Of a stretch of 64,000 nucleotides of DNA, positions 22,403-38,305 are shown one piece after another; the stretch's first letter is position 1, and every line of letters starts with the position of its first letter. Both the position numbers and the translations under genes were made by a program. The notes under the pieces were generated by a model that was not told the origin of the DNA, did not search any database, and saw nothing but the letters and a program-made list of their open reading frames with translations. The stretch comes from Clostridia bacterium (lineage in GTDB: Bacteria; Bacillota; Clostridia; Oscillospirales; CAG-272). The stretch is taken from NCBI GenBank assembly GCA_017450965.1, contig JAFSSQ010000010.1, positions 6,424 to 70,423 on the forward strand. Reading direction: 5' to 3'.

Positions 22403-24046
22403 TCATTTGTTTAAGGTGATCTCAAGCAAAAAGGTATTGTAGCAAGGATCCCAGGTCGACATCACAAAGGCGATCTTCCGGCCGCCGTCCCGCGAGAGGG
22501 CGGGGCAGCTGAAGCCGCCGTACACGCCCGCCCCGACCGAGGGGAAGGTGATGTCGGCCGAGAGGGCGTAGGGCCCTTCCGGCTTTTTGGCGGTGTAGAG
22601 GTGGAAGACGTTGTCCTTTTTGAAGGAGACGATCCACTCGCCGAGGTACTCGTTATAGAAGATCGTGTTCTCCGATACGCGCGCGTCGATCAGCGGGAAC
22701 TCGCTCCGGATCCCCGCCTCGCCCGCCGTCCAGACGGCGCTGCCGTCCGCGTCGTAGCCGGTGAGGTACTCGTAGGCGGAGAGCGTTTCGATCTTGTCCG
22801 CGTCCACCCGCATCATCCGGGCAAAGCCGAGCCGCCCGCCGGTGATCCCGGTCAGGTAGACCTTGCCGTCCGCGGGGTTGTAGGCGGGCGAGATCTGGCA
22901 GAACTTCGTGTCTCCTTCCCAGCGGATCCCGTCGACGATCTGCCACGTCTTGCCGTCGTCAGCGGATTTGGCGAGCCCGCCGTAGTTGCAGTCCCAGCCG
23001 TTGTCGGTGCTCCACTCGCGCACCGACATAAAGTAGAAGTAGAGGTTATCGCCGAGGGAGATCGCGCCCGTCGGGATCTTCGAATACTCGGTTTTCGGCT
23101 TTTTCATCCCGGGGATCAGCTCGGTCGCAAAGTCGCCGGAGGAGGCGTACATCCCGTCGAAGACGATGCCGTTGGTGTAATCGAGGTCGGTCGTGTAGGC
23201 GGCGGTGTTGGTGCGCCAGCCGTCCTTGCGCTCCCCGCCGGAGAAGGTATCGCCGAAGAAGAACCAGAGCGTGTCCTTGTGCAGAACGGGGAAGCCGAGG
23301 TCAAGCCCGCACACGTTGTAGAGAGAATGGGTGCGGTTGACCGAATACTCGCCCGTCAGCATGGCGATCGTCCTCACGCCCGTCACGGCGCGGAGGGGGG
23401 AGGAGGCGTTCCCGGTCACGGCGGTCGAGATCACGGCGGTATGCAGCTTTTCCACGACCGCGGTCCCCTGCTTTTCGTAGTCGTTGTAGGAGGAGAAACG
23501 GCTGACCGAGAGGGTGCGGCTGAGGGAGAGCCCGTCCCCGTCCCGCTCGAGGCACCGGCCGACCAGCCAGTCGACCGCGTTCAGTACCTCCGCGTCGCTG
23601 CCGCCGAGCAGGTAGATCGCCGTGCGGCCGTCCGTTTCCTCGACGAAAACGGAAAACTCCGTTTCCCGCAGGCGGGTCTCGTTTTTCTCCTTGCGGGAGG
23701 AAAACCCGACGACGATCTCCGCCTCGCCCGGCTCCGGCGTTTCGCGGTCGGTCGAGGCGGCCAGCCGCACCCCGGTCGCGTCCCGGACGTACTCCCGCAG
23801 AGAGGAGACGGCCGCTTTGACGGAGGCGGAGGCGTTATCCGCCCGGATCAGGGTAAAGGCGGAGGCGCCGCCCGAAACGAGCCGGATCCGCCCGTCGGCG
23901 GGCGCGGCGGGAGCCGCCGTTTCGCTTTCCGCCGGAGCGGAGGTCTCACCGGTCGCCGCGGGGGCCTTGTCACAGGCAAGGAGAAAAAGAAAAGGGAAGA
24001 GGGAGATCAGAAAGAGGGAAAACAGTTTCACAGAAAAACGGTTCAT
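22403..24046 (-). CDS. Lipoprotein with N-terminal alpha/beta accessory domain and DUF4185 (GH183-like endo-D-arabinofuranase) domain
   Basis: Lipobox LLAC; GLDLG, FFGDTF, WRTN, IPTGAI, YFYFMSV, S-x-D-x-G-x-T-W box, VSE. Confidence 0.75.
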   Translation of the reverse strand: MNRFSVKLFSLFLISLFPFLFLLACDKAPAATGETSAPAESETAAPAAPADGRIRLVSGGASAFTLIRADNASASVKAAVSSLREYVRDATGVRLAASTDRETPEPGEAEIVVGFSSRKEKNETRLRETEFSVFVEETDGRTAIYLLGGSDAEVLNAVDWLVGRCLERDGDGLSLSRTLSVSRFSSYNDYEKQGTAVVEKLHTAVISTAVTGNASSPLRAVTGVRTIAMLTGEYSVNRTHSLYNVCGLDLGFPVLHKDTLWFFFGDTFSGGERKDGWRTNTAAYTTDLDYTNGIVFDGMYASSGDFATELIPGMKKPKTEYSKIPTGAISLGDNLYFYFMSVREWSTDNGWDCNYGGLAKSADDGKTWQIVDGIRWEGDTKFCQISPAYNPADGKVYLTGITGGRLGFARMMRVDADKIETLSAYEYLTGYDADGSAVWTAGEAGIRSEFPLIDARVSENTIFYNEYLGEWIVSFKKDNVFHLYTAKKPEGPYALSADITFPSVGAGVYGGFSCPALSRDGGRKIAFVMSTWDPCYNTFLLEITLNK

Positions 24047-24102
24047 AACGGCCTCACAAGGGGGCCGGGCGCCGCCCGGTCCCGGTTTTTTAGAGGAAGA
24101 AA

Positions 24103-24138
24103 GCGGGACCGTAGGCGCGAAAACGCCTGCGGTCCCGC
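24103..24138 (-). terminator. Internal stem-loop (partial terminator or stabiliser)
   Basis: gcgggaccg.aggcg/cgcct.cggtcccgc stem followed by tttctt on the minus strand, between two co-oriented genes. Confidence 0.55.
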
Positions 24139-24146
24139 GCGTTTTG

Positions 24147-25490
24147 TCAGTTTTCGTTTGCGGAGCGGCAGCGGAAGAAGAGGATCGCAGAGGCAACGCA
24201 CCCGCAGAGAGAAACGATCAGGAGGATAATGGCGTAGACGGGAACAGAGGAGGAGCCGGAGCCGCTGCTCGCGGGGGTCGTTTCCGCGGCGGTCTCGGCG
24301 GGCGCCTTGGTCTCGGCGGCCTGCGTTTCGGCGGGCTTGGTCTCGACGGTCGCCTGGGTCTCCGCCGCGTCCGTTTCACCGGGCGCTGCGGTCTCGGGGG
24401 CGGCCGTTTCGGGCGCTTCGGTCTCGACCGGGACCTTCGACGCGTCGTAGAGGACCTGGTCAAAGCCGGTCGCTTTCGTCAGGAGGTCGGCGTTGGGCGT
24501 CTCCCAGGCGGAGGCGTCCAGGGTAATCCCCTGCGAGAACTTTTCGTGCTCGCCGACGTCGCCGGTGACGATCATTCCCTTTTTCGCGAAGGTGCCGCCG
24601 TTGATCTTCAGGACGGCGGTCCCTTTGATGCTGCCGGAGCCGGCAACGGCGCCGGTGATTTCCGTCGTGTCGATGAAGTCGCCGCCGTTGATGACGACGG
24701 TGGCGTTGCCTTCGACCGTCCCGGTGCCGAGGACGCGGATCGACTTTTTGAAGGTACCGCCGTTGATGGTCAGCAGGACGTCGCCCTTGATCGTGCCGTC
24801 GCCCGCGGCAAAGACTTCCGCGTTGATCTCGCCGCCGTTGATGGTAACGGAAACGCTTCCTTCATTGACGCAGTTGAGCTTCTGGTTGTTCCGGGTGCCG
24901 CCGCGGATCATCTGCCAGGAGCCGCCGTTGATGGTCAGATCGCCGCCGTGCGCGGCGTCCTGCGCGGCGTCGTCGTTACGGCCGGCGGTGATGCCGATGT
25001 AGTTGGAGCTGCCGTCTTTGACGCACTCCACGTCCTCGCCGATCACGACCTTGTTGCCGTTGCAGCAGTAGAGCGAGGTGCTCTTCTGGACGCGGATCTT
25101 CAGATGGTCGAGCGTGTGCGCGCTGTTGAAGTAGAGCCACATATCGGAGAGCAGCGCGGCTTCCGCCGTCGTACGGTAGTCGGTCCCGTTCCAGACGCTG
25201 GTCAGCGTATAGGCGCCCGTGGCGGTTTCCGGCGTGCGGTAGTCGGAGCCGTCGGCGGAGCGGGAGAGGGTCAGCGGTCCGCAGATCACGATCATGCCGC
25301 CGTTCGGCAGCGCGGCGTAAGCGGCGTTCAGAGAGGCCTTCGCCTTCTCGGGGGAGGAGCCGTCGGAGAGGTCGCTTCCGTTATCGCTGATAAAGCAGAC
25401 GTCATCCGCCGCCGCCGCGGGCGCGGCGGCGAGGGGGACGAGGAGCGTCAGGACAAGGAGAAGAGAGAGAAGATAACAAATCTTTTTCAT
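24147..25490 (-). CDS. Secreted, C-terminally anchored surface protein with a probable beta-solenoid domain
   Basis: Signal peptide; FISDNGSDLSDGSSPEKA start motif; repeated (L/V)xINGG units; PETAAP linker; C-terminal TM plus basic tail; AAAGGAG RBS. Confidence 0.7.
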   Translation of the reverse strand: MKKICYLLSLLLVLTLLVPLAAAPAAAADDVCFISDNGSDLSDGSSPEKAKASLNAAYAALPNGGMIVICGPLTLSRSADGSDYRTPETATGAYTLTSVWNGTDYRTTAEAALLSDMWLYFNSAHTLDHLKIRVQKSTSLYCCNGNKVVIGEDVECVKDGSSNYIGITAGRNDDAAQDAAHGGDLTINGGSWQMIRGGTRNNQKLNCVNEGSVSVTINGGEINAEVFAAGDGTIKGDVLLTINGGTFKKSIRVLGTGTVEGNATVVINGGDFIDTTEITGAVAGSGSIKGTAVLKINGGTFAKKGMIVTGDVGEHEKFSQGITLDASAWETPNADLLTKATGFDQVLYDASKVPVETEAPETAAPETAAPGETDAAETQATVETKPAETQAAETKAPAETAAETTPASSGSGSSSVPVYAIILLIVSLCGCVASAILFFRCRSANEN

Positions 25491-25522
25491 GATAGGTACT
25501 CCTTTCTGAAATCCCGGCGGGA

Positions 25523-27037
25523 TCAGTTGCCGAGTGTTTCGCGGAGCTTGACGTACTCGGCTTTCGCGGCGTCCACGTTCGCGGCGTAGACAGAGGCGAA
25601 GCCGTTGGTTCCGCGGATCGCTTCGGTGCGCAGATTGGTGATGATCTTAGCGGGATCGAGGGTAACGCCGAGGTCAAAGGTGCGATCCTGCAGGATCAGG
25701 GTCAGCATGTCGACGTTGAGGTCGTGGTCGCGCACGCTGCGGGTCCCGAAGACGTGATCAAAGAACACCGTCTTGATGTCGCGCTGATTGAGATAGCCCA
25801 TCGCGTTGATCACGGCGACGGTCTCGGTCTGATGCTCGGTCGCGCCGTAGGGGATCGTAACGATCGACATCTGCGGGCTCTGGATCAGAGAGTTGTAGCT
25901 TTCCTGCTTTTCGTCGAATTTGGGGAAGGGCAGGAAGCCGTAGTCGTCCTGCATATCCCAGAGCTGGAAGGAGCCGCAGATCGTCTCGGCGAAGAAGAGG
26001 AAGCGGCCGGTGGAGAAATAGATGCCGGATTTGCCGGCCAGGCTCGTGCCGCCGGAGTAGGAGGTGTCGTGCACGTTGAGGGTGGTGTCGTGAGAGAAGA
26101 CGCGGGTCAGCTGCTCCAGAGCGGCGACCTTCCGGTCGGTCAGCTCGAAGAGCGTCGGCCAGTTCTCGTCGTCGGACGCCGCGCAGGTCTCGTCCATGCC
26201 GTTGAGCGTGTACTCAAAGGTCTGGTTGCCGCAGACAAGGCCGTACTGGTCGTATTCGTAATCCATCTTGTCGTTGGCGTTCAGGTCATCGGTGCCGGCG
26301 GCGATCATTTCGTTCCACTTGTCGATCGTCCACTTGCCCTCGCGGACGAGCTGGAAGGCGTCCTCGAGGTTGAGAGTCTTCCCGAGCGTGTAGTTGTACA
26401 TGATGCAGGCGGTGGATTTCCAGGCCATGATGTTCATTTCGCCCATCGCGAAGTAACGGTACTTGCCGCCCCAGTTGAGGGTGTCGTTGACCGTCTTGTT
26501 CCACCAGGGATCGTCGAAGTTGAGCCCTTCCACCTCGTTGAGGTTGGTGACAAGCGCGCCGGAGAGGAGTTTGGTCATCTGGGTCCCGTTGGAGAAGTAG
26601 GAGTCGTAGGTGTGGTCGCCGGAGTTGACCTCCCGGCGGATCGTGTCGCCCGCGTTGGTGTGGGTCTTCTGGTCGTGGAGAATGGTGCAGTCAAAGGTGT
26701 CTTCGATCTCGCTGTTGCGGCGGTAGAGCGCCTCGGAGAGGACTTCTCCGTCCGAGTTGCCGGCGATATCGTAGTTGATCCACCAGTTCGTGTCGCCGCC
26801 GGTCAGGAAGTAGATGGTGGCGCCGTCAAAGTTCTTTTTGCCGAATTTTTCCTCAAGAGAGAGGTTCGAGGCCGCCGCGTTGTCGGTCTCCGTGGAGCCG
26901 GCGGGCGTCGTGCCGGAGGGGCCGGCCGGAGAAGGATTGCGGGCCGCTCCCGCGATGATGACCGTCATCCAGACGGCCACGGCGAGGAAGACGACAAAGA
27001 GCGCGGCGAAGATAGGGCTGCTTTTTTTAGAAAGCAT
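25523..27037 (-). CDS. Extracellular solute-binding protein (carbohydrate ABC SBP-like)
   Basis: N-terminal TM anchor; WWNKTVN, GKWTIDKW, DDYGFLPFPKFDEKQ features typical of clostridial sugar SBPs; AGGAGG RBS. Confidence 0.8.
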   Translation of the reverse strand: MLSKKSSPIFAALFVVFLAVAVWMTVIIAGAARNPSPAGPSGTTPAGSTETDNAAASNLSLEEKFGKKNFDGATIYFLTGGDTNWWINYDIAGNSDGEVLSEALYRRNSEIEDTFDCTILHDQKTHTNAGDTIRREVNSGDHTYDSYFSNGTQMTKLLSGALVTNLNEVEGLNFDDPWWNKTVNDTLNWGGKYRYFAMGEMNIMAWKSTACIMYNYTLGKTLNLEDAFQLVREGKWTIDKWNEMIAAGTDDLNANDKMDYEYDQYGLVCGNQTFEYTLNGMDETCAASDDENWPTLFELTDRKVAALEQLTRVFSHDTTLNVHDTSYSGGTSLAGKSGIYFSTGRFLFFAETICGSFQLWDMQDDYGFLPFPKFDEKQESYNSLIQSPQMSIVTIPYGATEHQTETVAVINAMGYLNQRDIKTVFFDHVFGTRSVRDHDLNVDMLTLILQDRTFDLGVTLDPAKIITNLRTEAIRGTNGFASVYAANVDAAKAEYVKLRETLGN

Positions 27038-27061
27038 CGTGGTTTCCTCCTTTTTTTTGTT

Positions 27062-29203
27062 TTATTTGCGGAAAAGAACAACTTTCTTTTCCTTGGCTTT
27101 CAGGGTGAGGGGGAAGGAAAGACGCTTGCCGCTCTCCGCGTCGTAGGCCTTCAGGGAGGCGGGCAGGGAGAGGAGCTCGGTATCCAGGACGGGGGAGACG
27201 GTCTCGTCGTGGTAAGCGGTGTTGTAAAGGTGCAGGATCGCGCTCCCGCCCCCGGCGGCGCGCTTCACCCCGCGGCGGACGGTCTCCGGGATCCCGGAGA
27301 GGCCGACGGTGTCGGTAAAGGTGCCGTCCCGGTAGATCTCCGGATACTTCGCCCAGAGCGCGTGCAGACGCTTGGAGGTGGGGTAAACGTAGGGGTGCTC
27401 CAGCAGGGGAGAGAAGACGGAGAAGGCGTAGCCCGCCATATTGTCTCCGATCTCGCCGCTGGCCTGCATACCGAGCATCGGGCGGTGCATTACGTAGGTA
27501 AGCGCCTCCGGACGCGCGTAAGAGGCCTTGGGGTTGCCCCATTTCCGCCACCAGTGCATGCACATGATGTCGATGTACGGATCGTAGGCGTCGCCCACGC
27601 CCTCGCAGCCGCAGATGTAATCGTCCGGACGGTATTTTTTGATCATCCGGTAGACCTTCGAGAAGAAGCGGCGATAGCCCTCGTTGAACGCGGTGGCCGG
27701 CGTTTTGTGGCCGTGGGTGCGGTCGTAGCAGAGGTAGGCGGGCATCGTCATCAGCTCGTCAAAGTAGATCCCGTCCGCGCCGAGCTTCATCACCGTTTCC
27801 ATCGCGCGCACCGCGGCGTTCGTCCAGGCGTCGGACATCGGGCACTGCGCGACGAAGTACTGGCGCGAGGTGCCGGGATACCGCTCGATCCAGACGTTGC
27901 CGTCCGGCTTCTTGATCGCGCAGTCGATGCCGATGCGGTCGGCGACCTTGCCGGGGCGGCGGAACCATTTCGACTCGCGGTCGGCGATGTGGACGTTGAC
28001 GTAGAAGATCGCCTTCATCCCCGCCTCGTGGACCTGGCGGATCGCCTCGCGGAGGCCTTCCTTGCCGCCGAGCTCCTTGACCGGCTCGTAGTCGGGATAC
28101 CAGGCGTCAAGCCCGCCGACGTGCCAGCCGATGAAGAGGACGAGGTCGGAGCCGCCTTCGTCCCTTGCGCGGACGGCGGCCTTGAGGAAGGTGTTAAAGT
28201 CCGGGGAGCCCATCCCGTCCGCGTTCAGGCAGCGGCAGGACATATCGGCGGGCGCCGTCACGGTCTTGGCCGGCGCGTCCTCGGTGTATTTGAGATGGTA
28301 ATAGGAAGGGAAGGAAACGCACTGATACACCGCCATCCCGCGGACGTTCTTTCCCGCCTGCGTCCGGCCGGGACCCTTTTCCGGGGCCGAAGCGCGGAAG
28401 CGGTTGTAAACGTCGGCGGCGAAATGCCAGTCGCCCTCGCCGGCGCCGAGGCAGATCGGAGCGAGCGTGGAGCCCTGACCGGGCGCGAGGAAAGGCCAGT
28501 GGCGGATGTAGAGCTTGCCGCTCTTTTCAAAGCCGAACTGCTTGTAGGAGTGGTCCTTGTCGTGGTGGCCGAGATAGAGGTGCTCCTTCTCGTTGTAAAC
28601 GGCGCAGCACTGCGCGGAGAAGGGAACGGGGTAGTTGGTGACGATCACGTTTTCGGTATACGTGTCGTTGTCGCCGATGGTGGAACGGAACTGGATGCGG
28701 TTCTCGGTCGTGAAGTCGCTGCCCTCGGCCGGGGAACGGAAGGCCTTTTTGAAGAGGGAGCCGTCCTGGATCGGCCAGTAGAGGGAGTCGTCCCCGCCTT
28801 CGACCCCGGAGAGGTCGGGATAGCGGAGACTGACGAGCACGCCCTTTTCGGAGCGGTTCTCCGTCCGGAGAGAGGCCTCGACGCAGCGCCCGCCTTCGGT
28901 GAAGCGGAGTTCTTCCTCGAAGACGACGAGCATGCCGTTTTCCGCAACGGTGCGGCGGATCACGAGACGGTCCTTTCCTTTCTTTTCAAAAGCGGCGGGC
29001 CGGCCCTTCACCGTGAAGGTCGCGGCGGTCTCGGCGTCGGGACGGCTGTCCCAGATGTCAGACACGCCGGAGTCAAACACAAAGCTGATCCAGCTGTCGG
29101 CGCGCCGCAGGTACTCCCGGCCGGTGGTCTTGTTCTTGAGACCGGTCAGGCACCCGTCCGAGTTCCGGAAAGACAAGCGAAGATACTGAGATTCAAAAAT
29201 CAT
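27062..29203 (-). CDS. Cytoplasmic DUF6259-like putative glycoside hydrolase (TIM barrel)
   Basis: IGW...DAWYPDY, LGGKEGLREAIRQVHEAG, YVN, QCP, DGIYFDEL, EG...D. No signal peptide. ATG 29203 with AAGGA RBS. Confidence 0.6.
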   Translation of the reverse strand: MIFESQYLRLSFRNSDGCLTGLKNKTTGREYLRRADSWISFVFDSGVSDIWDSRPDAETAATFTVKGRPAAFEKKGKDRLVIRRTVAENGMLVVFEEELRFTEGGRCVEASLRTENRSEKGVLVSLRYPDLSGVEGGDDSLYWPIQDGSLFKKAFRSPAEGSDFTTENRIQFRSTIGDNDTYTENVIVTNYPVPFSAQCCAVYNEKEHLYLGHHDKDHSYKQFGFEKSGKLYIRHWPFLAPGQGSTLAPICLGAGEGDWHFAADVYNRFRASAPEKGPGRTQAGKNVRGMAVYQCVSFPSYYHLKYTEDAPAKTVTAPADMSCRCLNADGMGSPDFNTFLKAAVRARDEGGSDLVLFIGWHVGGLDAWYPDYEPVKELGGKEGLREAIRQVHEAGMKAIFYVNVHIADRESKWFRRPGKVADRIGIDCAIKKPDGNVWIERYPGTSRQYFVAQCPMSDAWTNAAVRAMETVMKLGADGIYFDELMTMPAYLCYDRTHGHKTPATAFNEGYRRFFSKVYRMIKKYRPDDYICGCEGVGDAYDPYIDIMCMHWWRKWGNPKASYARPEALTYVMHRPMLGMQASGEIGDNMAGYAFSVFSPLLEHPYVYPTSKRLHALWAKYPEIYRDGTFTDTVGLSGIPETVRRGVKRAAGGGSAILHLYNTAYHDETVSPVLDTELLSLPASLKAYDAESGKRLSFPLTLKAKEKKVVLFRK

Positions 29204-29498
29204 AACGTTATCCTTTGATCCTTCTTTAAGATATGGTACGCTGAGTCTATTGTAGCATCGGCGAAAAAAGAGGGGAATATCATTTATTGGGCGATCGCTT
29301 GTCATTTCTTGCCGTCGGACGGGGGGAAGGGCCGCGCCCGGCTCCGGGAGCGGGGAGATCGGCCGAAAAAAGACAAAGCGATATATAAAATATAGAAATA
29401 ATAGGAAAAACCGGATTAAAGAAGATAAAAAGGGAGAGATAGAGAAAAAGGTTTTTTGTCTTTTTCTTTACAAAAATTGGCATATCAAGGAGAAAGTC

Positions 29499-29527
29499 TT
29501 GCGTTTACGCGCGAGCGGTGCTATTCT
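29499..29527 (+). promoter_or_regulatory. SigA-type promoter for the PfkB-ADH-FSA operon
   Basis: TTGCGT-N17-TATTCT with extended -10; closely resembles the promoter at 20699. Confidence 0.6.
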
Positions 29528-29561
29528 TTTGCTGAACAATCAGGCAAGGAGGCAGACCCTC

Positions 29562-30509
29562 ATGGCGACAGTTTACGGATTCGGTACGGCGGCGGTGGAT
29601 TTCCGCATCCGCACCGCGGATTTCGGCGATCTTTACAAGGACAAGCTCCTGGCGCAGACCATCGCGGAGATGGGCGGCGGCGCCGTGGCAAACTTCCTTT
29701 CCCAGGTCTCCCGTCTCGGCGGCAAGACCGCGTTTCTCGGCAAACTCGGCAGGGACGTGCCGGGGAAGAAGATCGTTTCTCTCCTGGAAGCGGAGGGGAT
29801 CGACTGCTCGCATATCCTGTATTCCGACACGCTCTGCTCTCCCTTCAACGTGGCCGCCTATTCCGGCGAGGGGATGCGCCGCCGCTGCGGCTTTCTGCTC
29901 CCGAACAGTCTTGCGTCGCTTGACGGGGAGGATATTTCCGCTCTGACGGAGGCGATCCGCCCGGAGGATCTGGTGATGGTCGAGATCGGAGAGATCCCGC
30001 CGGCCGCCGTGCTGTCCTTTATGCGGAAGGTGCGCGCGAAAGGGGCCAAACTCTTTATCGACGTGGACCTCGACCCCATCCGCCAGTGCGGCTTTACCCC
30101 AAAAGAGTTCGACGAGGTCTGCCGGCTCTCCGACGTCCTGATCCCGAACGTGGTCTCCCTCGGGGCGCTCTACCCCGATATGACGGCGCCCGCTTTGGCG
30201 GAAACGCTGTTTAAGATCTACGAAAAGCCCTGCGTGGTTTCCGCCGGACGGGACGGCGCCTTCTTCGCGGACCGGCCCGGTCCCGCGCAGAACGTCCCGG
30301 TCTACGAGGTCGAGGTGGTCGACACCGTCGGCGCGGGGGACGCGTTCCACGGCGGATTTGTTTACGGAATGCTTTCCGGCCTGCCGATCGGAGAGGCGGT
30401 GCGCTGCGGCTGCGTCTGCGGCGCGCTCAACTGCCGTACCTTCGGCGCGCGGGAAGGGATGGCGCGCAGGGAAGACCTGGACCGCGCCCTGAAAGGAGAA
30501 AACGGATGA
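29562..30509 (+). CDS. PfkB family carbohydrate kinase
   Basis: GGGAVAN, GKLGRD, PN, VDTVGAGDAFHGG, CGALNC...GAR. AGGAGG RBS. Confidence 0.9.
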   Translation: MATVYGFGTAAVDFRIRTADFGDLYKDKLLAQTIAEMGGGAVANFLSQVSRLGGKTAFLGKLGRDVPGKKIVSLLEAEGIDCSHILYSDTLCSPFNVAAYSGEGMRRRCGFLLPNSLASLDGEDISALTEAIRPEDLVMVEIGEIPPAAVLSFMRKVRAKGAKLFIDVDLDPIRQCGFTPKEFDEVCRLSDVLIPNVVSLGALYPDMTAPALAETLFKIYEKPCVVSAGRDGAFFADRPGPAQNVPVYEVEVVDTVGAGDAFHGGFVYGMLSGLPIGEAVRCGCVCGALNCRTFGAREGMARREDLDRALKGENG

Positions 30510-31717
30510 GTTCTTATTACAGCTTGCTCGAGACGGCGACCGACGCGCAAAAGCAGATCGCCGCGCTCCGGTTCCCCGGAGACGACGCCGCGGAAAAGGG
30601 GATCTTCCTCGGCTGCGGCGCCGCGCTGAAGGCCGGAGAGTTTCTGAAAAAGAGAGGAGCGTCCCGGGTGGCGGTCGTCGCCGACCGGATCCTCGAAAAG
30701 GTCGGGCTGCTCACGCCCGTCCTCGATTCTCTGAAGGAAAACGGCCTCGCGTACGACGTGTTTTCCGATATCGCGCCCGAGCCGCATACCGACGATCTGG
30801 CCGCGGCGGAGGCGTTTGCCCGCGCTCTTGCGGCGGACGCGGTGCTCGGCTTCGGCGGCGGCAGCTCGCTCGATACCGCAAAGGTCACGGCCTGCGCCCT
30901 GTCCGGCGCGGCGTCTTCTGTCGATCTGATCACCGGCAAAGCGCCGGTTTCCCGCGCCGTCCCGCTGATCCTGCTGCCCACGACCTCCGGTACGGGGAGC
31001 GAGGTCAGCCCTTACGCCGTGGCGAGCCACGAGGGCAAAAAGGTCTTTATTTCCTCGCCCGCCGCGATCGCGGACGCCGCTCTCGTCGACCCGCTGATGA
31101 CGGTCACGATGCCGCCGTCCGTTACCGCCTGCACCGGGCTTGACGCTCTCACGCACGCGGTGGAGGGCATGTGCGGCTGCCCCAACCCCTTCACGAAAGC
31201 GCTGGCCAAAGAGGCGACGGAGATCGTCTTCTCCTCTCTCCCGGCGGCGGTCGCGGAGCCGGAAAACCTCGACGCGCGTACGAAAATGTCCTACGCCTCG
31301 GTGCTCGGGATGATGGCGTACACGCAGGGAGGCGGGCTCTACGCGCACAGCGCCTCGTATATCATCACCCTGCAAAAGAACAAACCCCACGGGCTCGGCT
31401 GCGGACTGACGCTGCCGTACACGCTCGCGCTCAACCTCGCCGAGATCCGGGATCTGCTCACGGGCCTGATCCCCGCGATCAAAGCAAGCGGGCTCGCGGC
31501 GCCGGCAAGCGCCGATGAGGTGCCCGCCGCCTTCCTTGCGCTGGTGAAGAAGGTCGGCGTTCCCGCCACGCTGGCGGAGATCGGCTATACCGAAGCGGAC
31601 GTTCCCGCCTTCGGCCACGCCCTCTTTGCCGATTACTACCGCGCGAAAAATCCGAAAAAAGCCGACGAAGCCGACCTTGTCGCGCTGGCCGGCCGGATGC
31701 TGACCGGGACGATCTGA
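30506..31717 (+). CDS. Iron-containing alcohol dehydrogenase
   Basis: GGGSSLDTAK, PTTSGTGSEVS, DALTH, H...PHG metal ligands. Confidence 0.88.
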   Translation: MSSYYSLLETATDAQKQIAALRFPGDDAAEKGIFLGCGAALKAGEFLKKRGASRVAVVADRILEKVGLLTPVLDSLKENGLAYDVFSDIAPEPHTDDLAAAEAFARALAADAVLGFGGGSSLDTAKVTACALSGAASSVDLITGKAPVSRAVPLILLPTTSGTGSEVSPYAVASHEGKKVFISSPAAIADAALVDPLMTVTMPPSVTACTGLDALTHAVEGMCGCPNPFTKALAKEATEIVFSSLPAAVAEPENLDARTKMSYASVLGMMAYTQGGGLYAHSASYIITLQKNKPHGLGCGLTLPYTLALNLAEIRDLLTGLIPAIKASGLAAPASADEVPAAFLALVKKVGVPATLAEIGYTEADVPAFGHALFADYYRAKNPKKADEADLVALAGRMLTGTI

Positions 31718-31772
31718 TCCCGCTGAAACCGCTCTCAAAAAAATTGATATATTTTTCAGGAGGAAACAAGTT

Positions 31773-32486
31773 ATGGAAATTTACGGTGCCGGTTCTCTCG
31801 AGGACGTGCGGATTTGCACGGAGCTCGGCGTCACGGGGATCCTCACGAATCCCCAGGGCTTTGAGCAGTATTATCAGGGCAAGATGACGCTCCGCGAGAT
31901 CACCGAAGCTCTCCTCAAAGCGAGCGACGACGGCCGCGACATCCCGGTCTTCATCCAGGTCCACGGACGTGACGCGGAGGAGATCGCCCACCGCGTGGAG
32001 GAGCTGCACGAGCTCAACCCCCGCCGCGTCTGCGGCAAGATCATCGCGGACGAAAAGGGCTTCCGCGCGATCAAAAAACTGCACGACGAAGGCATCCGCT
32101 GCGTCGCGACCTGCCTCTTCTCGCTCTCTCAGGCGGCGGTCGCCGCGATGGTCGGCGCTTACGCGATCTGCCCGTTCGTCTCCCGCGCGACCGCGATGGA
32201 GATGGATATGTTCGGCATCATCCGCAGCATCAAAGAGTGCTACCGTGACACGCCGAACGCGCCCCGCATCCTCGCCGCCAGCATCAAGAGCACCGCGGAC
32301 GTCAACGGCGCTTACGCCGCCGGTACGGACGCCGTCGCGCTCCGCTATCCGATGCTCCAGCAGATGATGGACCACGTCCTCACCACCCGCGCGGAAGCGC
32401 TCTTCGCCAAGAACTGGGCGAACGTCAAGGGCGAGGACATGAGCTACATGAAGGAAAAGATCAAACTCGAAGGCATCGCGGAATAA
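31773..32486 (+). CDS. Fructose-6-phosphate aldolase/transaldolase family protein, atypical active site
   Basis: TNP, FIQV, Schiff-base K (VCGKII), T-x-LFS, PFVSR, LAASIK. Confidence 0.8.
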   Translation: MEIYGAGSLEDVRICTELGVTGILTNPQGFEQYYQGKMTLREITEALLKASDDGRDIPVFIQVHGRDAEEIAHRVEELHELNPRRVCGKIIADEKGFRAIKKLHDEGIRCVATCLFSLSQAAVAAMVGAYAICPFVSRATAMEMDMFGIIRSIKECYRDTPNAPRILAASIKSTADVNGAYAAGTDAVALRYPMLQQMMDHVLTTRAEALFAKNWANVKGEDMSYMKEKIKLEGIAE

Positions 32487-32500: not shown

Positions 32501-32536
32501 AAAAAAGGACGGGAAGCAGCGCTTCCCGTCTTTTTT
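32501..32536. terminator. Bidirectional intrinsic terminator
   Basis: gacgggaagc/gcttcccgtc stem flanked by A6 and T6. Confidence 0.85.
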
Positions 32537-32542
32537 ATTCTC

Positions 32543-33451
32543 TTATCCGATCTCAAACGCCGCCAGCAGCCGCCGGAACGTGTCCTGCCCGTCGAGACAG
32601 GTGTCGGTAAGCCAGCCCTTTTCGTTCTCCCATTCGGCGAGCCCGCGATAATAAAATGCCTTTTTGCCGTCCTCGATGAGGAAGGGAACGATCCGGTACC
32701 GCAAGCACTCCTTGAGCGCGATCAGCCGCCCGACGCGGCCGTTTCCGTCCTGGAACGGATGGATCTTTTCAAACGCCGCGTGGAAGGCGACGATATCTTC
32801 CACGGAGATTTCCGGTTTCGCGTTGTAACCGGCGAGCAGCTCTTTCATCCGCGCCGGCACGTCTTTCGGCTTCATCGTTTCCCGCCCTCCCACAACGTTG
32901 GGGCGTTTTTTGTACTCTCCCACGGCAAACCAGGCAAGCGTGGAATCTTTTGTGTCGTGTTTCAGGATAAAGTGCAGTTTTTTGATGATCGCCTCGGAGA
33001 GCGGTTCCTCGGCGCAGTCGATCACGTAATCGATGGCGCGGAAGTGATGTACCGTCTCCAGAACGTCGTCGACCGGAACGCCGTCGCCGATAGTCAGCGT
33101 GTTCGTTTCGTAGATCAGACGCGTCTGATCCTCGGTCAGACGGCTGCCTTCGATATGGTTGGAGTTGTAGGTCATACGCACCTGCAGCTCGTGATACAGA
33201 CCGCCCGAGAGTTTCGCTTCTTTTTCTTCGCGCAGGGTCTGCAGGATCGGATTGTCCGAGATTTCACGGACGAGGTCTTCCGGACGGCACACAAAGAAAG
33301 CGGCGAGCTTTTTCATCACGGCAGGGGAAAGTTTTTCGCCCTTGCCGATCTTGGCGACCGTCCGCGACGAGAGCCCGAGCAGCCGTGTCAGATCCGATCG
33401 CCCGATCCCGCGCTCCTTCAGTTTTTCTTCAAGCCCATGGTAGGAAATCAT
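32543..33451 (-). CDS. Fic family protein with N-terminal Cro/C1-type HTH
   Basis: Canonical HPFQDGNGRVGR and TYNSNHIEG; N-terminal HTH (LTRLLGLSSRTVAKI). Confidence 0.93.
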   Translation of the reverse strand: MISYHGLEEKLKERGIGRSDLTRLLGLSSRTVAKIGKGEKLSPAVMKKLAAFFVCRPEDLVREISDNPILQTLREEKEAKLSGGLYHELQVRMTYNSNHIEGSRLTEDQTRLIYETNTLTIGDGVPVDDVLETVHHFRAIDYVIDCAEEPLSEAIIKKLHFILKHDTKDSTLAWFAVGEYKKRPNVVGGRETMKPKDVPARMKELLAGYNAKPEISVEDIVAFHAAFEKIHPFQDGNGRVGRLIALKECLRYRIVPFLIEDGKKAFYYRGLAEWENEKGWLTDTCLDGQDTFRRLLAAFEIG

Positions 33452-33475
33452 AGCTATCCCCCTTCATCTTTACTT

Positions 33476-33504
33476 ATTATAGCACAAAGGACGCAAAAAG
33501 TAAA
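33476..33504 (-). promoter_or_regulatory. Promoter of the Fic gene
   Basis: TTTACT-N17-TATAAT with extended -10. Confidence 0.55.
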
Positions 33505-33580
33505 GATTTCAGGCAAAAAATCCTCTGAAAAGGAAAGATTCCCTCCGGCCGCGGCGAAACCGCGCCCGGAGGGAGGGAAG

Positions 33581-33620
33581 AAGCCCCCGGCTGCCCGATG
33601 AACGAGCCGGGGGCTTTTGC
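33581..33620 (-). terminator. Hairpin ending the RM-island operon
   Basis: aagcccccggct/agccgggggctt stem; a second hairpin lies at 33539-33579. Confidence 0.6.
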
Positions 33621-33638
33621 TTTTATACGTTATAATTA

Positions 33639-34403
33639 CTAGGCTCTTTGCGCTGAGGCATAGAAATTTGCTTTTTCCGGGCATAAGGAAGCAACCTCAA
33701 TGATTATAAGCCGCGGGGTTTTTCCGAACGGGGGCGAAATATAGGGAGAAAACCACAAAACAAAATCAGCTCCACATTGTTTTATTTTTTTTAAAAAATC
33801 AATGTCGTAACATGGATGATGGAGTGCCTTGCTGGTTTTTCCGTTTTTGTTGATGACGCGAAAATGCTCATGTTCGGATATATCGCACACTACAAAAGCA
33901 AGGTGGTCACATTCCGGATGATTCTTTTTATAATATGATATTTTGTTCTTGTGGCTATCGATCACGCGGCAAAAATTCTGATAGTATTGGTCATAATCCG
34001 GTTCCATTTTGTCTTCATACTCGAACATTATGTTAGTAACAGCTGGGAATTGGTTTGTAATACTTGATTTTATAATCTCCTTTGCTGAAAAAGCGCCTTC
34101 TCTTGCAGGGGGATTATCCGGGCTTCCGCCGGGCTTTGTCTTTTCATAATCATTGACACTCATGAATTCAAGCATCAGTTTCTTTTCGGAATTGATGTAA
34201 TCGGGCGGATTGCTTGTGTTTTCAGAGTTGTCAAGCCAACCGTTCGATTCTTTCAAAGTTTTGAAACACTTTTTTTCAAGAGGGGATCCGGTAAGATAAA
34301 CGACTTGTTTTTTTGTTGTTTTAATTAAATGTTCAAAAGCATACTTTTCTTTTTGGAAAAGATCATGAACAAATTTCCCGTTTTGAATCATTCCAAAAGC
34401 CAT
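33639..34403 (-). CDS. Hypothetical protein, possible PD-(D/E)xK-like nuclease
   Basis: AT-rich 254-aa ORF 8 bp after res; PPDY...LMLEF motif. Confidence 0.55.
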   Translation of the reverse strand: MAFGMIQNGKFVHDLFQKEKYAFEHLIKTTKKQVVYLTGSPLEKKCFKTLKESNGWLDNSENTSNPPDYINSEKKLMLEFMSVNDYEKTKPGGSPDNPPAREGAFSAKEIIKSSITNQFPAVTNIMFEYEDKMEPDYDQYYQNFCRVIDSHKNKISYYKKNHPECDHLAFVVCDISEHEHFRVINKNGKTSKALHHPCYDIDFLKKIKQCGADFVLWFSPYISPPFGKTPRLIIIEVASLCPEKANFYASAQRA

Positions 34404-34411
34404 TTTTTCAT

Positions 34412-36565
34412 TTATCCGCCTGATTTAATGATCGGAGATTTCATAAACCTCTGAAACTGTTCCAGCGTCATATTCCTTTCGTTTCCGTTTGCCAACTGTG
34501 TGATATGCCATTCATCGCCCTTATAAACTGGAAGGTAGAACATATATTCAGTAAGAAGCGATGCTTGTTTATAACACCTTTTAAGTTCCTCAACTTTGAC
34601 CTTGTAGGCGGTGGAGTCAAACGCCGTCGGCGTTGCATTAGATATGTTAACGCTCTTTACTTCAAACAAATGAATTCTATCAAAAGAATCCTTCATAATG
34701 AAATCCGGATACGACGAGTGAACGCCGCCTAAGCAGTATTCAAACTTTATTTCGGAGTTTAATAAAAAGTTTTTACCCCATAAGTATTTTTGTGCGGCAT
34801 CTATCCTTTCCGGCTCGATTTCGCCAAAAAGATCAACTTGACCGGCTTTCGGATTTCGTTTACCCGTCAACACACGTTTTCCGACGCGCTTTCCGTCAAA
34901 CCCCTCTGTATCAGACGAAACGAGTTCTTTGATAATGCTTGCCCATTCGCGTTCAGCTTCACTATCAAACGAGAACTTATCCTTGCCGTCTCTTCTTCTC
35001 CATACCCAGTCTCCGATGTTTACATAATTGCGATTATCAACATAGGAAGAGGTAACGGGGAACGATACTTCGCGCGGTGTGCCGGCGTCATCGGTTGTTA
35101 ACTCCATACTCTCCGCATAATCGCAAGAGTAACGGTTACTTTCCGCCTCGATTTTCTCCGCGTGCTCGGCAACTCTCCACCATTTTTCGATATTGTTGCC
35201 AATGTATTCATAGCAGAGATCCCTTGCAGCGTTATCCAGCTTTTGAGTTGCCTTGTATAGATCAAAAATGTTTGAATAACTGGATACGTTCGGCTGGCTC
35301 GACAAAAACTCCTCAAGATCAAATCCGGTTTTTTTCGTGAGCGGCTTCAAGCGTGTAGTATGTATTCTGATTGCGTTTGTAATATCCTCCGGCTCGTCCC
35401 ACAAACGAACGCCGATGGTTTTTCTAACGTTATCATCGATGTTTGCCCATATCCAAGCCGTCATTGCAAGTTCTTGCGCTTGCGGAGAAAGATGCTCATA
35501 ATCAAGCAACCTCGGATTCCTTCTGACTCTGCCTATAACCTGCTCGCCGAGGATGGGACTTTGTACAGATCTGACTTGATATAACATACAAGCTCTTGGA
35601 ATATCCCATCCCTCGGATATAACCATCTTGAAAATGATAACATCAATGCCACTTGTGTTTTCTTTAGCATAGTCTTTCCATTTGGAAACAGGGAGGACAC
35701 GACACTTATCGGTAGTTTCGCTTTTTATGCCGTTTTCTTTTTTTTCGTCGACAATAAGCATCCAGTTCAAGTTTCGTCTTTTGAGTTCAGGGAAAACTAA
35801 ATTGTTTAACTCATCAACCCCTTGTTCGCCATTGGATATTTGAATAATAAGGCACGGATTAATATTAAGAAGGTCAAGGTAGTTTTGCTTAATTTCTTCA
35901 AACTTGTTGATCGCGTCGCCAAGATTATCTTTTTCTTCTCCCTCAACAATATGTTTGATCAATTTTGCGTTTTCCGCATCGGTTGATTTGATCTCTACAT
36001 CGGGGTACTGTCCTTTTGTGGGATCCGGTGTTGCAGAGAAGTTCAACACTTTTGCAAAATAAGTGTGAGATAGAATATCAAGATTGTTTGTTGCGCTGTG
36101 GCACTCGTCTTTGATAAGATATACTTCCTTGTGGTTTTTCCAAGAATAGCAGCCGGTTATTTCCTGAAAAAACGCATCCATTGCTGCCCCTTGCATCAAT
36201 CTGCTTCCTTCTCTGTAAAGGTCGCGAGGAAGAACATATACATTGTAATCCGTGGGAATATACAACCGTTCTTCTCCCGAAAGTTCGGATGAAATCAGAT
36301 ACGGATTCAGATGCGGGAATGCCCCTGTTTGTTGATACTCGCAAAACTTTGAATAGTTCTGTCCTGCAAGATCGCCTTTCGATAACGAGGATACCAAAAA
36401 TACTATATCATCATTTTGTTCGAGAACACGATTCATCAAATCAGCCATCATATATGTTTTGCCGCTGCCGGTAGGAGCTTTGAACGTGATCTCGTTTTTG
36501 TCACGGAGCTGTTCAACCAGTTCCAAAACAGCGTTGAGTTGAAGATCTTTCGCTTCCTGTAACAT
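34412..36565 (-). CDS. res: Type III restriction endonuclease subunit (SF2 helicase + PD-(D/E)xK)
   Basis: APTGSGKT, DECH, SAT, EGWD, QVIGRVRR, C-terminal YPDF...FEVK. TAATG coupling to mod. Confidence 0.9.
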   Translation of the reverse strand: MLQEAKDLQLNAVLELVEQLRDKNEITFKAPTGSGKTYMMADLMNRVLEQNDDIVFLVSSLSKGDLAGQNYSKFCEYQQTGAFPHLNPYLISSELSGEERLYIPTDYNVYVLPRDLYREGSRLMQGAAMDAFFQEITGCYSWKNHKEVYLIKDECHSATNNLDILSHTYFAKVLNFSATPDPTKGQYPDVEIKSTDAENAKLIKHIVEGEEKDNLGDAINKFEEIKQNYLDLLNINPCLIIQISNGEQGVDELNNLVFPELKRRNLNWMLIVDEKKENGIKSETTDKCRVLPVSKWKDYAKENTSGIDVIIFKMVISEGWDIPRACMLYQVRSVQSPILGEQVIGRVRRNPRLLDYEHLSPQAQELAMTAWIWANIDDNVRKTIGVRLWDEPEDITNAIRIHTTRLKPLTKKTGFDLEEFLSSQPNVSSYSNIFDLYKATQKLDNAARDLCYEYIGNNIEKWWRVAEHAEKIEAESNRYSCDYAESMELTTDDAGTPREVSFPVTSSYVDNRNYVNIGDWVWRRRDGKDKFSFDSEAEREWASIIKELVSSDTEGFDGKRVGKRVLTGKRNPKAGQVDLFGEIEPERIDAAQKYLWGKNFLLNSEIKFEYCLGGVHSSYPDFIMKDSFDRIHLFEVKSVNISNATPTAFDSTAYKVKVEELKRCYKQASLLTEYMFYLPVYKGDEWHITQLANGNERNMTLEQFQRFMKSPIIKSGG

Positions 36566-38205
36566 TACTTGTCTTCCTCCAGACGCTTTTTCCAATCAGC
36601 GTCACTTTCAAGAACCTTTTGAGTTCCTTCAAAGTTCCGACAAATCCACTCGATCTTTTCTTTCAACGTGCTGAATTTCTCTTGACCGTACAACGTTTCA
36701 TCAATCACGTCAAAAGCCGTCTGCCCCGGAACACTTTCAAAATTAGCAACCTCCGCAATCTCATACACGTCAAGACTGCCGCCTAAAGGTTCATTGTCAT
36801 TAGCCCATTTGAAGTCGGTTGATCCGTCATAACAACTGCCAGTCATTGTTCTTTTTAACCTTTTTGAAGTAACATCATAGGCAATGCCGTGTGGATTTAC
36901 AGGTGTTTTTTCGTTTATTTGGCAGAGAACAAATCGTCTCTTTCCGTCATCTTGTTTATTCAATTCAAGAACCGCTTGACCTGTAGTTCCGCTTCCTGCA
37001 AAAAAGTCTAAAACCGTTGCTTCCTTTTTCCAATAAGTAGTCGATTTTAATAAGAGCTGGACAAGACCGACAGGCTTTGGATTGTCAAATGTATCGTCCA
37101 AAATCTCTTCTAATTGTGCGGTGCCATCTTCGTTTGTTTCACAGTTATAAAATACTTGAGATAGCATATTCCCCATTTTTTTGATTTCGCCGCCATCCTT
37201 TACAAGGTTGGGTCTAAATGGCACTTGGCTAATCGTAATAATGCTTCCTTTTGAGATCTCGTCATCAAGCGTTTCTTGACTATATCTCCATTCGCCTTCA
37301 AGCACCATCTCATTTATGTTTGTTCCATCCTCAATTACAACATCATTTAGTAGTCTTGTAATGATATTCCCGTTTGACATATCTTGTGCCTTGACTGTGC
37401 CATCAGGCATATTGAACCTAACGCGATTGGGTGGGAAATGCAATTTCCCCATAGTGTTTCCTGCGTTATTGAAAGGGTATTTTTTTCCAACAGTTGTTGT
37501 TTCAACAGAAAACGGAAAAGTTTCTTGATAATTAGCCACATAGCAAAGAATGTACTCGAACATTGTCCCAAAGTTCTTTGACAAGAATGACGGTTTTTTC
37601 TTTTTTTGCCAAATAATTGTTCCCGAGTAGTTTCTCTCTTGAAACACTTCATCCATTAGGCATTTTACATACGCATAATTACGATCATCAATACTACAAA
37701 ATATCACACCTGTTTCAGATAACAACATCTTCGCAAGTGTCAATCTGGAATAAAGCATGGACAATAAATTATCACGTGTCAATGCATTCTCATAATTTGT
37801 CTGAGCAAATTCGCCCATGCTGTCTTTCCCATACGGTGGATCAATATAAATAACATCAATTTTGCCCTTGTACTGAATAAGCAAATTGAGCAAACCGTCG
37901 TAATTATCGCCAATAATCAATTTGTTCGGCGACTTATCCGACCCATCTGAAAAACTCAATTCTTCGTTTTTCTTGAAATACTTTATAGCGGGCTCGGTTT
38001 TTTCAAGGCGTTTATCAAAATGGAATCCCGTCCTCTTATAAGTTGTACCGAGTTCGGCAATAAAAATTGCTTCCGTCAGCGTGTCGGCGTTTTGAATAAG
38101 CTTTTTAAGAAGATCAGCGTTGCTCTTTTCGATAATACCGTCTTCCATACGGCGATCCAGTTCGTTTATCAGTTCCTGCCGGCTTTGTTCAAAAACTGTT
38201 TTCAT
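36565..38205 (-). CDS. mod: Type III DNA methyltransferase subunit
   Basis: IYIDPPY and VLDFFAGSGTTG in beta-class order. ATG 38205 with GGAG RBS. Confidence 0.92.
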   Translation of the reverse strand: MKTVFEQSRQELINELDRRMEDGIIEKSNADLLKKLIQNADTLTEAIFIAELGTTYKRTGFHFDKRLEKTEPAIKYFKKNEELSFSDGSDKSPNKLIIGDNYDGLLNLLIQYKGKIDVIYIDPPYGKDSMGEFAQTNYENALTRDNLLSMLYSRLTLAKMLLSETGVIFCSIDDRNYAYVKCLMDEVFQERNYSGTIIWQKKKKPSFLSKNFGTMFEYILCYVANYQETFPFSVETTTVGKKYPFNNAGNTMGKLHFPPNRVRFNMPDGTVKAQDMSNGNIITRLLNDVVIEDGTNINEMVLEGEWRYSQETLDDEISKGSIITISQVPFRPNLVKDGGEIKKMGNMLSQVFYNCETNEDGTAQLEEILDDTFDNPKPVGLVQLLLKSTTYWKKEATVLDFFAGSGTTGQAVLELNKQDDGKRRFVLCQINEKTPVNPHGIAYDVTSKRLKRTMTGSCYDGSTDFKWANDNEPLGGSLDVYEIAEVANFESVPGQTAFDVIDETLYGQEKFSTLKEKIEWICRNFEGTQKVLESDADWKKRLEEDK

Positions 38206-38305
38206 TTTTATTATCTCCAATTCTTACTATTCGTTCAGTATTTGAGTATTTCAACGGATAGAACAAGTTTCATTTTGCAGAGAGCGGCGAGGACAACGCG
38301 GTAAA

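Follow-up and report, generated by a model that had tools for sequence, protein, structure and literature searches.

A 64-kb stretch of a Clostridia metagenome-assembled genome (MAG; 2.07 Mb, ~60% GC, 98% complete), hereafter the window, carries genes for a pfkB-family kinase, an iron alcohol dehydrogenase (Fe-ADH) and an enzyme of the transaldolase (TAL)/fructose-6-phosphate aldolase (FSA) fold. The near relatives of this genome are MAGs from the guts of ruminants and other animals. The three genes, here called the trio, are best explained as one operon encoding a self-sufficient catabolic module. We observed a defined gene order, assignable gene families, a rebuilt aldolase active site, a conserved pairing of kinase with aldolase, and a physical and phyletic linkage of the trio both to a glycyl radical enzyme (GRE) operon and to GH183 endo-D-arabinofuranase genes. 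From these observations, we propose a scheme in which D-arabinose, the presumed substrate, would be split to yield glycolaldehyde, and in which the GRE and the acylating aldehyde dehydrogenase DmpF would carry the two-carbon product to acetyl-CoA. We offer this full scheme tentatively, as having somewhat less than an even chance of being correct.

The trio operon and its atypical aldolase

The trio and the elements on either side of it are listed below, in window coordinates.

29340-29561, plus strand: AT-rich regulatory region of ~220 bp, common to the trio and the divergent DUF6259 operon; holds TTGGCATATC at 29477-29486
29562-30509, plus strand: pfkB-family sugar kinase of an uncharacterised clade, 315 aa (Pfam PfkB, E = 3.6e-38)
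30506-31717, plus strand: group III iron alcohol dehydrogenase, FucO/DhaT-like, 403 aa (Pfam Fe-ADH, 3.1e-41; ADH_Fe_C, 3.2e-31)
31773-32486, plus strand: atypical TAL/FSA-fold class I aldolase, 237 aa (Pfam TAL_FSA PF00923, E = 7.1e-24)
32502-32536, bidirectional: intrinsic terminator, a 16-pair hairpin followed by a T-run, closing the trio operon

The pfkB stop codon and the Fe-ADH start codon share four bases (ATGA), and a gap of 55 bp separates the Fe-ADH gene from the aldolase gene. An AGGAGG box lies in front of the pfkB ATG, and the aldolase ATG has GGAGG in front. A preliminary description of this DNA had placed the three genes in the same orientation under one promoter, ending at a strong terminator. 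The shared plus-strand orientation and the terminator were both borne out, the latter against a background of other terminator-like matches in the window at chance level (5 found versus 4.7 expected). As for the promoter, a single one is plausible, but a sigma-70 scan of the AT-rich region 5' of pfkB returned no plus-strand promoter match.

The aldolase scored 85.1 bits against PF00923 (gathering cut-off 27), and its AlphaFold2 model (pLDDT 93.4) gave TM scores of 0.83-0.93 to short TAL and FSA structures. However, it missed the FSA equivalog model TIGR00875 (93.8 bits versus 245.95) and PRK12653 (77 versus 306), and it also failed the TAL equivalog models. Identity was 26-34% to canonical TalC/FSA-type proteins of related genomes and no higher than ~30% to solved TAL/FSA structures. 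The protein falls in a clade of 232-237-aa proteins that are 52-70% identical to the window copy and that are spread over at least seven phyla (Bacillota, Spirochaetota, Lentisphaerota, Planctomycetota, Verrucomicrobiota, Bacteroidota and Atribacterota). It is also the sole TAL/FSA-family gene detectable in this nearly complete genome, so the organism appears to be without a canonical transaldolase; a split transketolase lies on contig C40 of the same genome.

Across 35 family members, the Schiff-base Lys89 and the phosphate-binding Arg138 and Ser170 (Lys85, Arg134 and Ser166 in FSA) were invariant, as were the TNP motif and the Gln of FSA position 59. The enzyme has thus very probably kept the ability to bind a terminal phosphate located three carbons away from the bond that is cleaved. 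The rest of the catalytic machinery has been rebuilt: an invariant Gly-Ala-Gly-Ser loop (Gly5-Ala6-Gly7) occupies the position of FSA/TAL Asp6, an invariant Phe135 replaces FSA Tyr131, and Gln62 replaces the catalytic Glu of TAL (Glu60 in TacTal). Compared with short transaldolases, the aldolase keeps only the Phe at the FSA-Tyr131 position, with the catalytic Glu and the Asp both gone. The family-specific invariant residues are GAGS, Q28, C110, C133, R191-Y192, H201 and E208, and among them R191, Y192 and H201 are candidates for a substitute acid/base function. In the underlying alignment, the T. thermophilus TAL row has the same Asp as E. coli FSA; PDB entry titles (R134V/S166G, Lys86Ala) corroborate the FSA residue numbering. 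By its defining residues, the protein would be classed as neither an FSA nor a transaldolase. The protein that was earlier labelled FSA-like is not a canonical FSA.

The kinase belongs to Pfam PfkB only. It retains DTVGAGD, with the GAGD catalytic motif, and the ribokinase GGKGAN reads GGGAVAN, without the Lys. Its scores fell below all NCBIfam equivalog cut-offs (93.9 versus 299.65 for ribokinase TIGR02152, 95.8 versus 300 for IolC, and far under the cut-offs for tagatose, 2-keto-3-deoxygluconate (KDG) and fructose kinases) and placed it about equidistant from YdjH, KDG kinase, sulfofructose kinase, ribokinase and IolC. The Fe-ADH carries the GGGS NAD motif together with D223, H227, H281 and H295, the presumed metal ligands by the ligand positions of FucO and DhaT. 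Its best NCBIfam match was lactaldehyde reductase (FucO, TIGR02638) at 201 bits versus a cut-off of 523, which does not make it an equivalog, and its best PDB sequence matches were methanol dehydrogenases, 1,3-propanediol dehydrogenases and FucO (~147-153 bits). GldA models gave ~28-31 bits. We class the enzyme by sequence as FucO-like, not GldA-like.

The same gene architecture could also serve a substrate whose donor carbon bears no hydroxyl. In TalB and FSA, the Asp hydrogen-bonds the hydroxyl on the nucleophilic carbon. With Asp6 replaced by the invariant loop and the phosphate site kept, the aldolase might cleave a 2-deoxy-aldose 5-phosphate to glyceraldehyde 3-phosphate (G3P) and acetaldehyde, like deoxyribose-phosphate aldolase (DERA), or a 2-keto-3-deoxy-6-phospho acid to G3P and pyruvate, like 2-keto-3-deoxy-6-phosphogluconate (KDPG) aldolase; the ADH and DmpF would then take acetaldehyde directly. 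The near-equal kinase scores against IolC, KDG kinase, YdjH and ribokinase speak for such substrates, the TRAP transporters found beside trio operons suggest acids, and acetaldehyde is the canonical substrate of DmpF. However, the GH183 locus shows no obvious source of a deoxy sugar, and this reading would leave the GRE unaccounted for. Were pyruvate the product, the conserved aldehyde reductase would be left without a role, and several operons would hold three pyruvate aldolases, namely a lyase of the dihydrodipicolinate synthase (DHDPS) family, DmpG and the atypical aldolase. Overall, we regard a non-hydroxylated donor as unlikely, while giving it appreciable weight.

Conservation of the module and its link to a glycyl radical enzyme

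We examined 28 loci with aldolase-family genes, taking gene counts from tblastn labelling. The same pfkB clade adjoins the aldolase in 27 of them; an Fe-ADH adjoins in at least 16, and a divergent DHDPS-family lyase in 12. TRAP, SSF, MFS or ABC transporters are common at these loci, some of which add a YhcH-type anomerase, a weak BNR/Asp-box repeat protein or esterases. The kinase and the aldolase form the core of the module, and this speaks for an aldolase that takes the kinase product as its substrate and cleaves it directly. Furthermore, no sugar isomerase recurs among the 28 loci, as would be expected if an aldose phosphate is cleaved without prior isomerisation. The logic of kinase, aldolase and aldehyde reductase that had been read into the trio is supported. 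In one Clostridia sub-group of aldolase-kinase loci, without ADH and DHDPS, a gene of the URO-D family (uroporphyrinogen decarboxylase/MtaA-like) follows pfkB (L043:11638-12789 and five other loci).

In other phyla, the co-occurrence of a TRAP binding protein, YhcH, the DHDPS lyase and a BNR protein is, by analogy, the pattern of ulosonic-acid catabolism. The TRAP binding protein of trio loci had its best PDB match in 4PF6 (210 bits; SiaP, 160 bits), an entry that is presumably a complex with 3-deoxy-D-manno-octulosonate (Kdo). The same companions could point to a module for ulosonic acids or amino sugars: after a NanA-like lyase, an aldose such as ManNAc-6-P would be cleaved to erythrose 4-phosphate and N-acetylaminoacetaldehyde, which the ADH would turn into N-acetylethanolamine, whose C-N bond would then be broken by the GRE. 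A SiaP-like binding protein, a YhcH anomerase, a DHDPS lyase, a BNR-repeat protein and esterases do occur with the trio in several phyla. In addition, the Gly-rich loop at the Asp6 position could admit a bulky substituent on the donor carbon, and the loss from the GRE of the residue equivalent to glycerol dehydratase Asp447 could suit a non-hydroxyl leaving group. However, the DHDPS protein is only remotely NanA-like (E about 1e-8), the binding protein is nearer 4PF6 than SiaP, and this genome, where the context is GH183, has none of the SiaP-like binding protein, YhcH, DHDPS lyase or BNR-type genes. We therefore consider this route improbable. A BLASTP comparison of propeller/BNR-like neighbours of the other loci with the GH183, DUF6259 and unnamed proteins of the window found no similarity.

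Downstream of the trio, the window holds a convergent GRE operon and, between the two operons, an island of different composition. The first four genes listed were assigned by Pfam and NCBIfam, and the island by composition and Pfam.

38886-39794, minus strand: GRE activase
39788-42130, minus strand: GRE, 6.4 kb downstream of the trio
42161-43183, minus strand: DmpG-like aldolase
43180-44061, minus strand: DmpF-like acylating aldehyde dehydrogenase
44125-45009, minus strand: AraC-family regulator, at the head of the GRE operon
45037-47718 and 47764-50262, minus strand: two GH183/DUF4185 paralogues, at the head of the GRE operon, with TTGGCATTTC upstream at 50314
32543-38220, minus strand: low-GC (~40%) island with Fic/DOC-HTH, a 254-aa unknown protein, a ResIII helicase and an N6/N4 DNA methylase

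Within the genus, aldolase and GRE orthologues occur together in 7 genomes and are both absent from 2. Elsewhere, trio genes lie on the same strand as, and directly beside, DmpF-DmpG-GRE-activase in Ca. Limiplasma, a Feifaniaceae MAG, a Victivallales MAG, a Spirochaetes contig and several metagenome contigs (in one operon at L029, L030, L037, L064, L065 and L071; partly at L033, L069, L070 and L072). Conversely, about 10 of the 14 GRE-DmpF-DmpG loci with enough flank carry trio genes in the same operon. Among GRE homologues, those of at least 48% identity always have DmpF-DmpG adjoining, and those of 46% or less never do. Aldolase copies that are linked to a GRE group together in the tree of the family (support 100/99), the window copy among them, except for the Victivallales copy, which sits on a separate branch. 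The preliminary description had staked its GRE connection beforehand on co-occurrence across genomes, and had looked to genomes in which the two sets of genes directly adjoin; both were found, and the link between trio and GRE is real. Could a generic sugar module, metabolically unconnected to the GRE, nevertheless lie beside it in the window by accident? The two operons are convergent, 6.4 kb apart and under separate promoters, and the trio and the GRE module each also occur alone. Yet fusions of the two on one strand recur across four phyla or more and map to two distinct branches of the aldolase tree, and trio, GRE and GH183 show a three-way co-occurrence in the genus, so that we judge incidental proximity very improbable.

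At least 18 of the 26 other trio genomes are without an orthologous GRE, and six of the trio genomes (G046, G048, G055, G057, G065 and G066) are without any close GRE homologue. In the other direction, four GRE-DmpFG loci have no trio and only a TRAP or MFS transporter. The trio and the GRE module are thus separable, which means that the aldolase must be able to obtain its substrate without the GRE. Most likely the GRE works downstream of the aldolase or alongside it, and not upstream. This separability favours a scheme in which a sugar phosphate would give G3P and a small aldehyde, which would be reduced to an alcohol and possible GRE substrate; that scheme was the first of two put forward in the preliminary description, and it fits the distribution.

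The second scheme ran from kinase to GRE to aldolase to ADH. Here a phosphorylated anhydro- or polyol sugar would undergo rearrangement or dehydration by the GRE, giving a deoxy-keto sugar phosphate for the aldolase, as in the YbiW/PflD-FSA-GldA sets. A deoxy substrate made by the GRE would explain the missing Asp, and both the strict co-occurrence of trio and GRE in the genus and the fused operons elsewhere agree with this order. It is not supported, however, by the many trio genomes without an orthologous GRE or by the four GRE-DmpFG loci without the trio. Furthermore, the GRE scored higher to glycerol/propanediol dehydratases (611 and 582 bits) than to YbiW/PflD (471-500 bits) and has DmpF and DmpG beside it, the aldolase fails the FSA model, and the ADH is not GldA-like. 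The analogy with anhydrohexitol-phosphate degradation drawn earlier was therefore not upheld, and we think it quite improbable that the GRE precedes the aldolase.

The Cys loop of the GRE reads GCSE, and the enzyme has Phe and Ile at two positions that separate propanediol from glycerol dehydratase. By NCBIfam models it is not HpsG, HpfG or IslA. The catalytic motifs of DmpG look intact. Some GRE-DmpFG loci are flanked by genes for LarA-family proteins (nickel hydroxy-acid racemase/epimerase) and for ETF/FAD-linked hydroxy-acid dehydrogenase or GlcD/CCG proteins (L064:12767-17414; L023:1-1801; L063:1-1574). These flanks hint at an alpha-hydroxy acid as substrate or product of the GRE-DmpFG module, which has no place in the scheme proposed here. 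A conserved ~125-aa protein (WYLIPHWRV, QPWESWY, THHVH, ERPDEVIGRLWYWYD), without family assignment, adjoins the aldolase gene in GRE-linked operons elsewhere. It follows the aldolase in L023 (10710-11090), whereas in L064 (5999-6367) and L065 (5913-6302) it has the TRAP genes on one side and the aldolase on the other; this genome has no homologue of it.

The island, of 5.7 kb and with Fic and type III-like restriction-modification (R-M) genes, separates the two convergent catabolic operons. At the same site, G006 has Fic alone, with ~2 kb between aldolase and GRE, and G002 has R-M genes without Fic. The island is a variable insertion, and its site looks like a defence-island hotspot.

The putative D-arabinan locus and a shared upstream motif

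On the other side of the trio lie two further groups of genes.

22403-29305, minus strand, divergent from the trio: GH183 (DUF4185) endo-D-arabinofuranase homologue, two unnamed proteins and a DUF6259 protein
20677-22339, plus strand: ribokinase-like kinase, then a single-domain (CBS-less, single-SIS) KpsF/KdsD-like arabinose-5-phosphate isomerase (API), assigned by Pfam and NCBIfam

DUF4185 is the GH183 endo-D-arabinofuranase family (PMC10115798), and three DUF4185 genes lie within the window. Multi-copy GH183 is present in exactly the 7 genus members that have both trio and GRE (G001 has a fragment only), and 32 relatives outside the genus have no GH183 bar one fragment. In G003 and G007, GH183 genes flank the trio. 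Co-located and co-inherited in this way, the genes mark out a putative GH183-based D-arabinan utilisation locus, whose activity on D-arabinan is predicted from the family. As a general companion of the trio in other lineages, GH183 was rejected, since 23 of the 26 trio genomes outside the genus are without it.

The ribokinase-like kinase scored 308.7 against the ribokinase cut-off of 299.65, and the API homologue starts one base later; the KpsF/API model gave 129 bits over the SIS domain of the latter. We saw no Kdo-synthesis genes in the window. The pair may provide a direct route from D-arabinose through arabinose 5-phosphate (A5P) to ribulose 5-phosphate (Ru5P).

The 10-mer TTGGCATATC (TTGGCATWTC) sits 85 nt upstream of the pfkB ATG. 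The motif occurs exactly three times in the 64 kb (20667-20676, 29477-29486 and 50314-50323; chance expectation 0.25), and each copy lies upstream of an operon of the locus: ribokinase-like/API, the trio, and GH183b/c-AraC-DmpFG-GRE. There are six copies in the 2.07-Mb genome, and the motif is kept upstream of pfkB in G002, G006 and G003. It was found post hoc, which makes its statistics indicative only. Its presence in three promoter regions suggests that the three operons are co-regulated; as a candidate operator, the motif may be bound by the AraC regulator at 44125-45009. A sigma-54 promoter was rejected as an explanation of the motif, the GG-to-GC spacing being two bases short.

One of the unnamed proteins (25523-27037, 504 aa) has no Pfam match and has at least 11 paralogues of 21-27% identity across the genome, a spread typical of a sugar-binding lipoprotein family. 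At the far end of the window, positions 1-19000 hold lower-GC (44-53%) plus-strand genes for cell-surface polymer synthesis (GT2 glycosyltransferases, DUF1919 and CDP-glycerol glycerophosphotransferase), compositionally distinct from the catabolic locus.

Proposed pathway and comparison with known systems

In the scheme that we propose, the pfkB kinase would phosphorylate a free sugar at its terminal hydroxyl, the TAL-fold Schiff-base aldolase would split the sugar phosphate into G3P and a small aldehyde, and the Fe-ADH would reduce the small aldehyde to an alcohol. With D-arabinose, this would run through D-arabinose 5-phosphate to G3P and glycolaldehyde, and on to ethylene glycol; the cleavage of A5P is an activity that we predict for the aldolase. 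In the genus, the trio would be part of an acquired D-arabinan utilisation regulon together with the GH183 genes, the ribokinase-like kinase and API, and the AraC regulator. The convergent GRE/activase/DmpG/DmpF operon would be an add-on of strict anaerobes, in which the GRE would convert ethylene glycol to acetaldehyde and DmpF would convert acetaldehyde to acetyl-CoA, so that the pentose would end as G3P and acetyl-CoA. This branch would be redox-neutral and gain ATP, which would account for our finding the add-on only among anaerobe-type lineages. We infer every substrate in the scheme, as well as the direction of the ADH reaction and the reaction of the GRE.

Kdo aldolase (EC 4.1.2.23) yields pyruvate and D-arabinose. 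D-arabinose is the one sugar to be expected from both contexts, because of the GH183 locus here and the Kdo-type companions of the trio elsewhere. The EC 4.1.2.23 activity and a 1966 source for it are cited in PMC12199768, and E. coli FSA interconverts A5P with glycolaldehyde and G3P (PMC6900487, PMC9947464). A broader claim is that the locus encodes a natural pentose split, in which D-arabinose released from D-arabinan, or elsewhere from Kdo-type ulosonic acids, would pass through A5P to G3P and glycolaldehyde and then, in strict anaerobes, through ethylene glycol, a new GRE dehydratase and DmpF to acetyl-CoA. We hold this broader claim to be doubtful.

Several observations weigh against the D-arabinose scheme. 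The missing Asp means that a non-hydroxylated donor fits the aldolase better than glycolaldehyde does, and the enzyme is also without both known acid/base residues (Tyr131 and the TAL Glu). The ribokinase-like kinase and API could take D-arabinose to Ru5P, which makes the pfkB kinase look redundant. In the GRE pocket, His446 and Asp447 of glycerol dehydratase are replaced by Leu and Thr, so that this is not a plain diol-dehydratase pocket, and DmpG is without a role in the scheme. The distribution of the genes adds further difficulties: GH183 is absent from the 23 of 26 trio genomes mentioned above, and in the near relative G041 the trio is accompanied by neither GH183 nor GRE. Finally, DHDPS is missing from L064 and L065, which combine a TRAP transporter with a trio; this hints that an acid is imported and passes straight to the kinase, and the TRAP or MFS transporters at the GRE-DmpFG loci without a trio suggest an anionic GRE substrate.

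Our literature search turned up no account of such a pathway in nature. FSA cleavage of A5P is now treated as a reaction of synthetic biology, so that its use in a natural route would be a novelty. If the broader claim is correct, the pathway would be a radical-enzyme equivalent of the phosphoketolase split and would supply the first genes for Kdo and D-arabinose catabolism by such a route. A natural route based on A5P cleavage would give functions to three uncharacterised enzyme clades. It would also place the orphan GRE-DmpFG module of several anaerobe phyla in a physiological context with a short list of candidate substrates, and would explain how ruminant-gut Clostridia gain energy from the D-arabinofuranose-containing cell-wall glycans of Actinobacteria. 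The aldolase is of enzymological interest because it has dispensed with the canonical Asp, Glu and Tyr residues yet retains a TAL/FSA scaffold.

Among characterised enzymes, E. coli FsaA/FsaB and the short (subfamily 4/5) transaldolases share with the window aldolase the TIM-barrel fold, the Schiff-base Lys, TNP, Gln59 and the equivalents of Arg134 and Ser166. The window aldolase differs from them in its 21-30% identity, in the loss of Asp6, Tyr131 and the TAL Glu, and in its pairing with a kinase. At the level of the pathway, D-arabinose degradation by the E. coli fuc enzymes (FucI, FucK, FucA and FucO) also ends in glycolaldehyde or ethylene glycol. The L-fucose/D-arabinose route has the order of kinase, aldolase and Fe-ADH in common with the trio, and in gut Firmicutes it is coupled to a GRE that dehydrates the diol. 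However, the trio has no isomerase, its aldolase is of the class I TAL fold and not class II, and its predicted triose is G3P and not dihydroxyacetone phosphate (DHAP). Compared with the coupling in gut Firmicutes, the window GRE is not a canonical propanediol dehydratase and has DmpF/DmpG, not PduP, as its partners; among the genes scanned, none for a microcompartment shell turned up.

Synthetic A5P pathways have been built as a glycolic-acid route (PMC6900487) and as the glycolaldehyde assimilation pathway 'SAGA' (PMC9947464, PMC13550131). In these, a KdsD-type API and FSA interconvert Ru5P, A5P, and glycolaldehyde plus G3P, and the window locus has the same enzyme types; whereas the synthetic pathways use canonical FSA, the route proposed here would be natural and catabolic and would use a divergent aldolase. 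Anhydroglycolysis, with YbiW/PflD GRE isomerases, FSA and GldA (reviewed in PMC13450708), likewise sets a GRE near a TAL/FSA-fold aldolase and an Fe-ADH-superfamily reductase, with G3P and a small carbonyl compound as products. The window differs from it in that the GRE is not orthologous, there are no phosphotransferase system (PTS) genes, the aldolase is not FSA, the ADH is not GldA, and the trio mostly occurs without a GRE.

The sulfo-EMP and sulfo-TAL pathways also combine a pfkB kinase (YihV), an aldolase or TAL-fold enzyme (BmSF-TAL) and an aldehyde reductase, and their product 2,3-dihydroxypropane-1-sulfonate (DHPS) is a GRE substrate in other organisms. The relationship is distant, at 63 bits to sulfofructose kinase and ~45 bits to BmSF-TAL, and the window locus has no sulfoquinovose (SQ) isomerase, sulfoquinovosidase or exporter. 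Overall, the logic of the pathway is known from fucose/rhamnose degradation, sulfo-EMP and anhydroglycolysis, whereas the aldolase clade with its rebuilt active site, the dedicated kinase and the coupling to an orphan GRE-DmpFG module are new.

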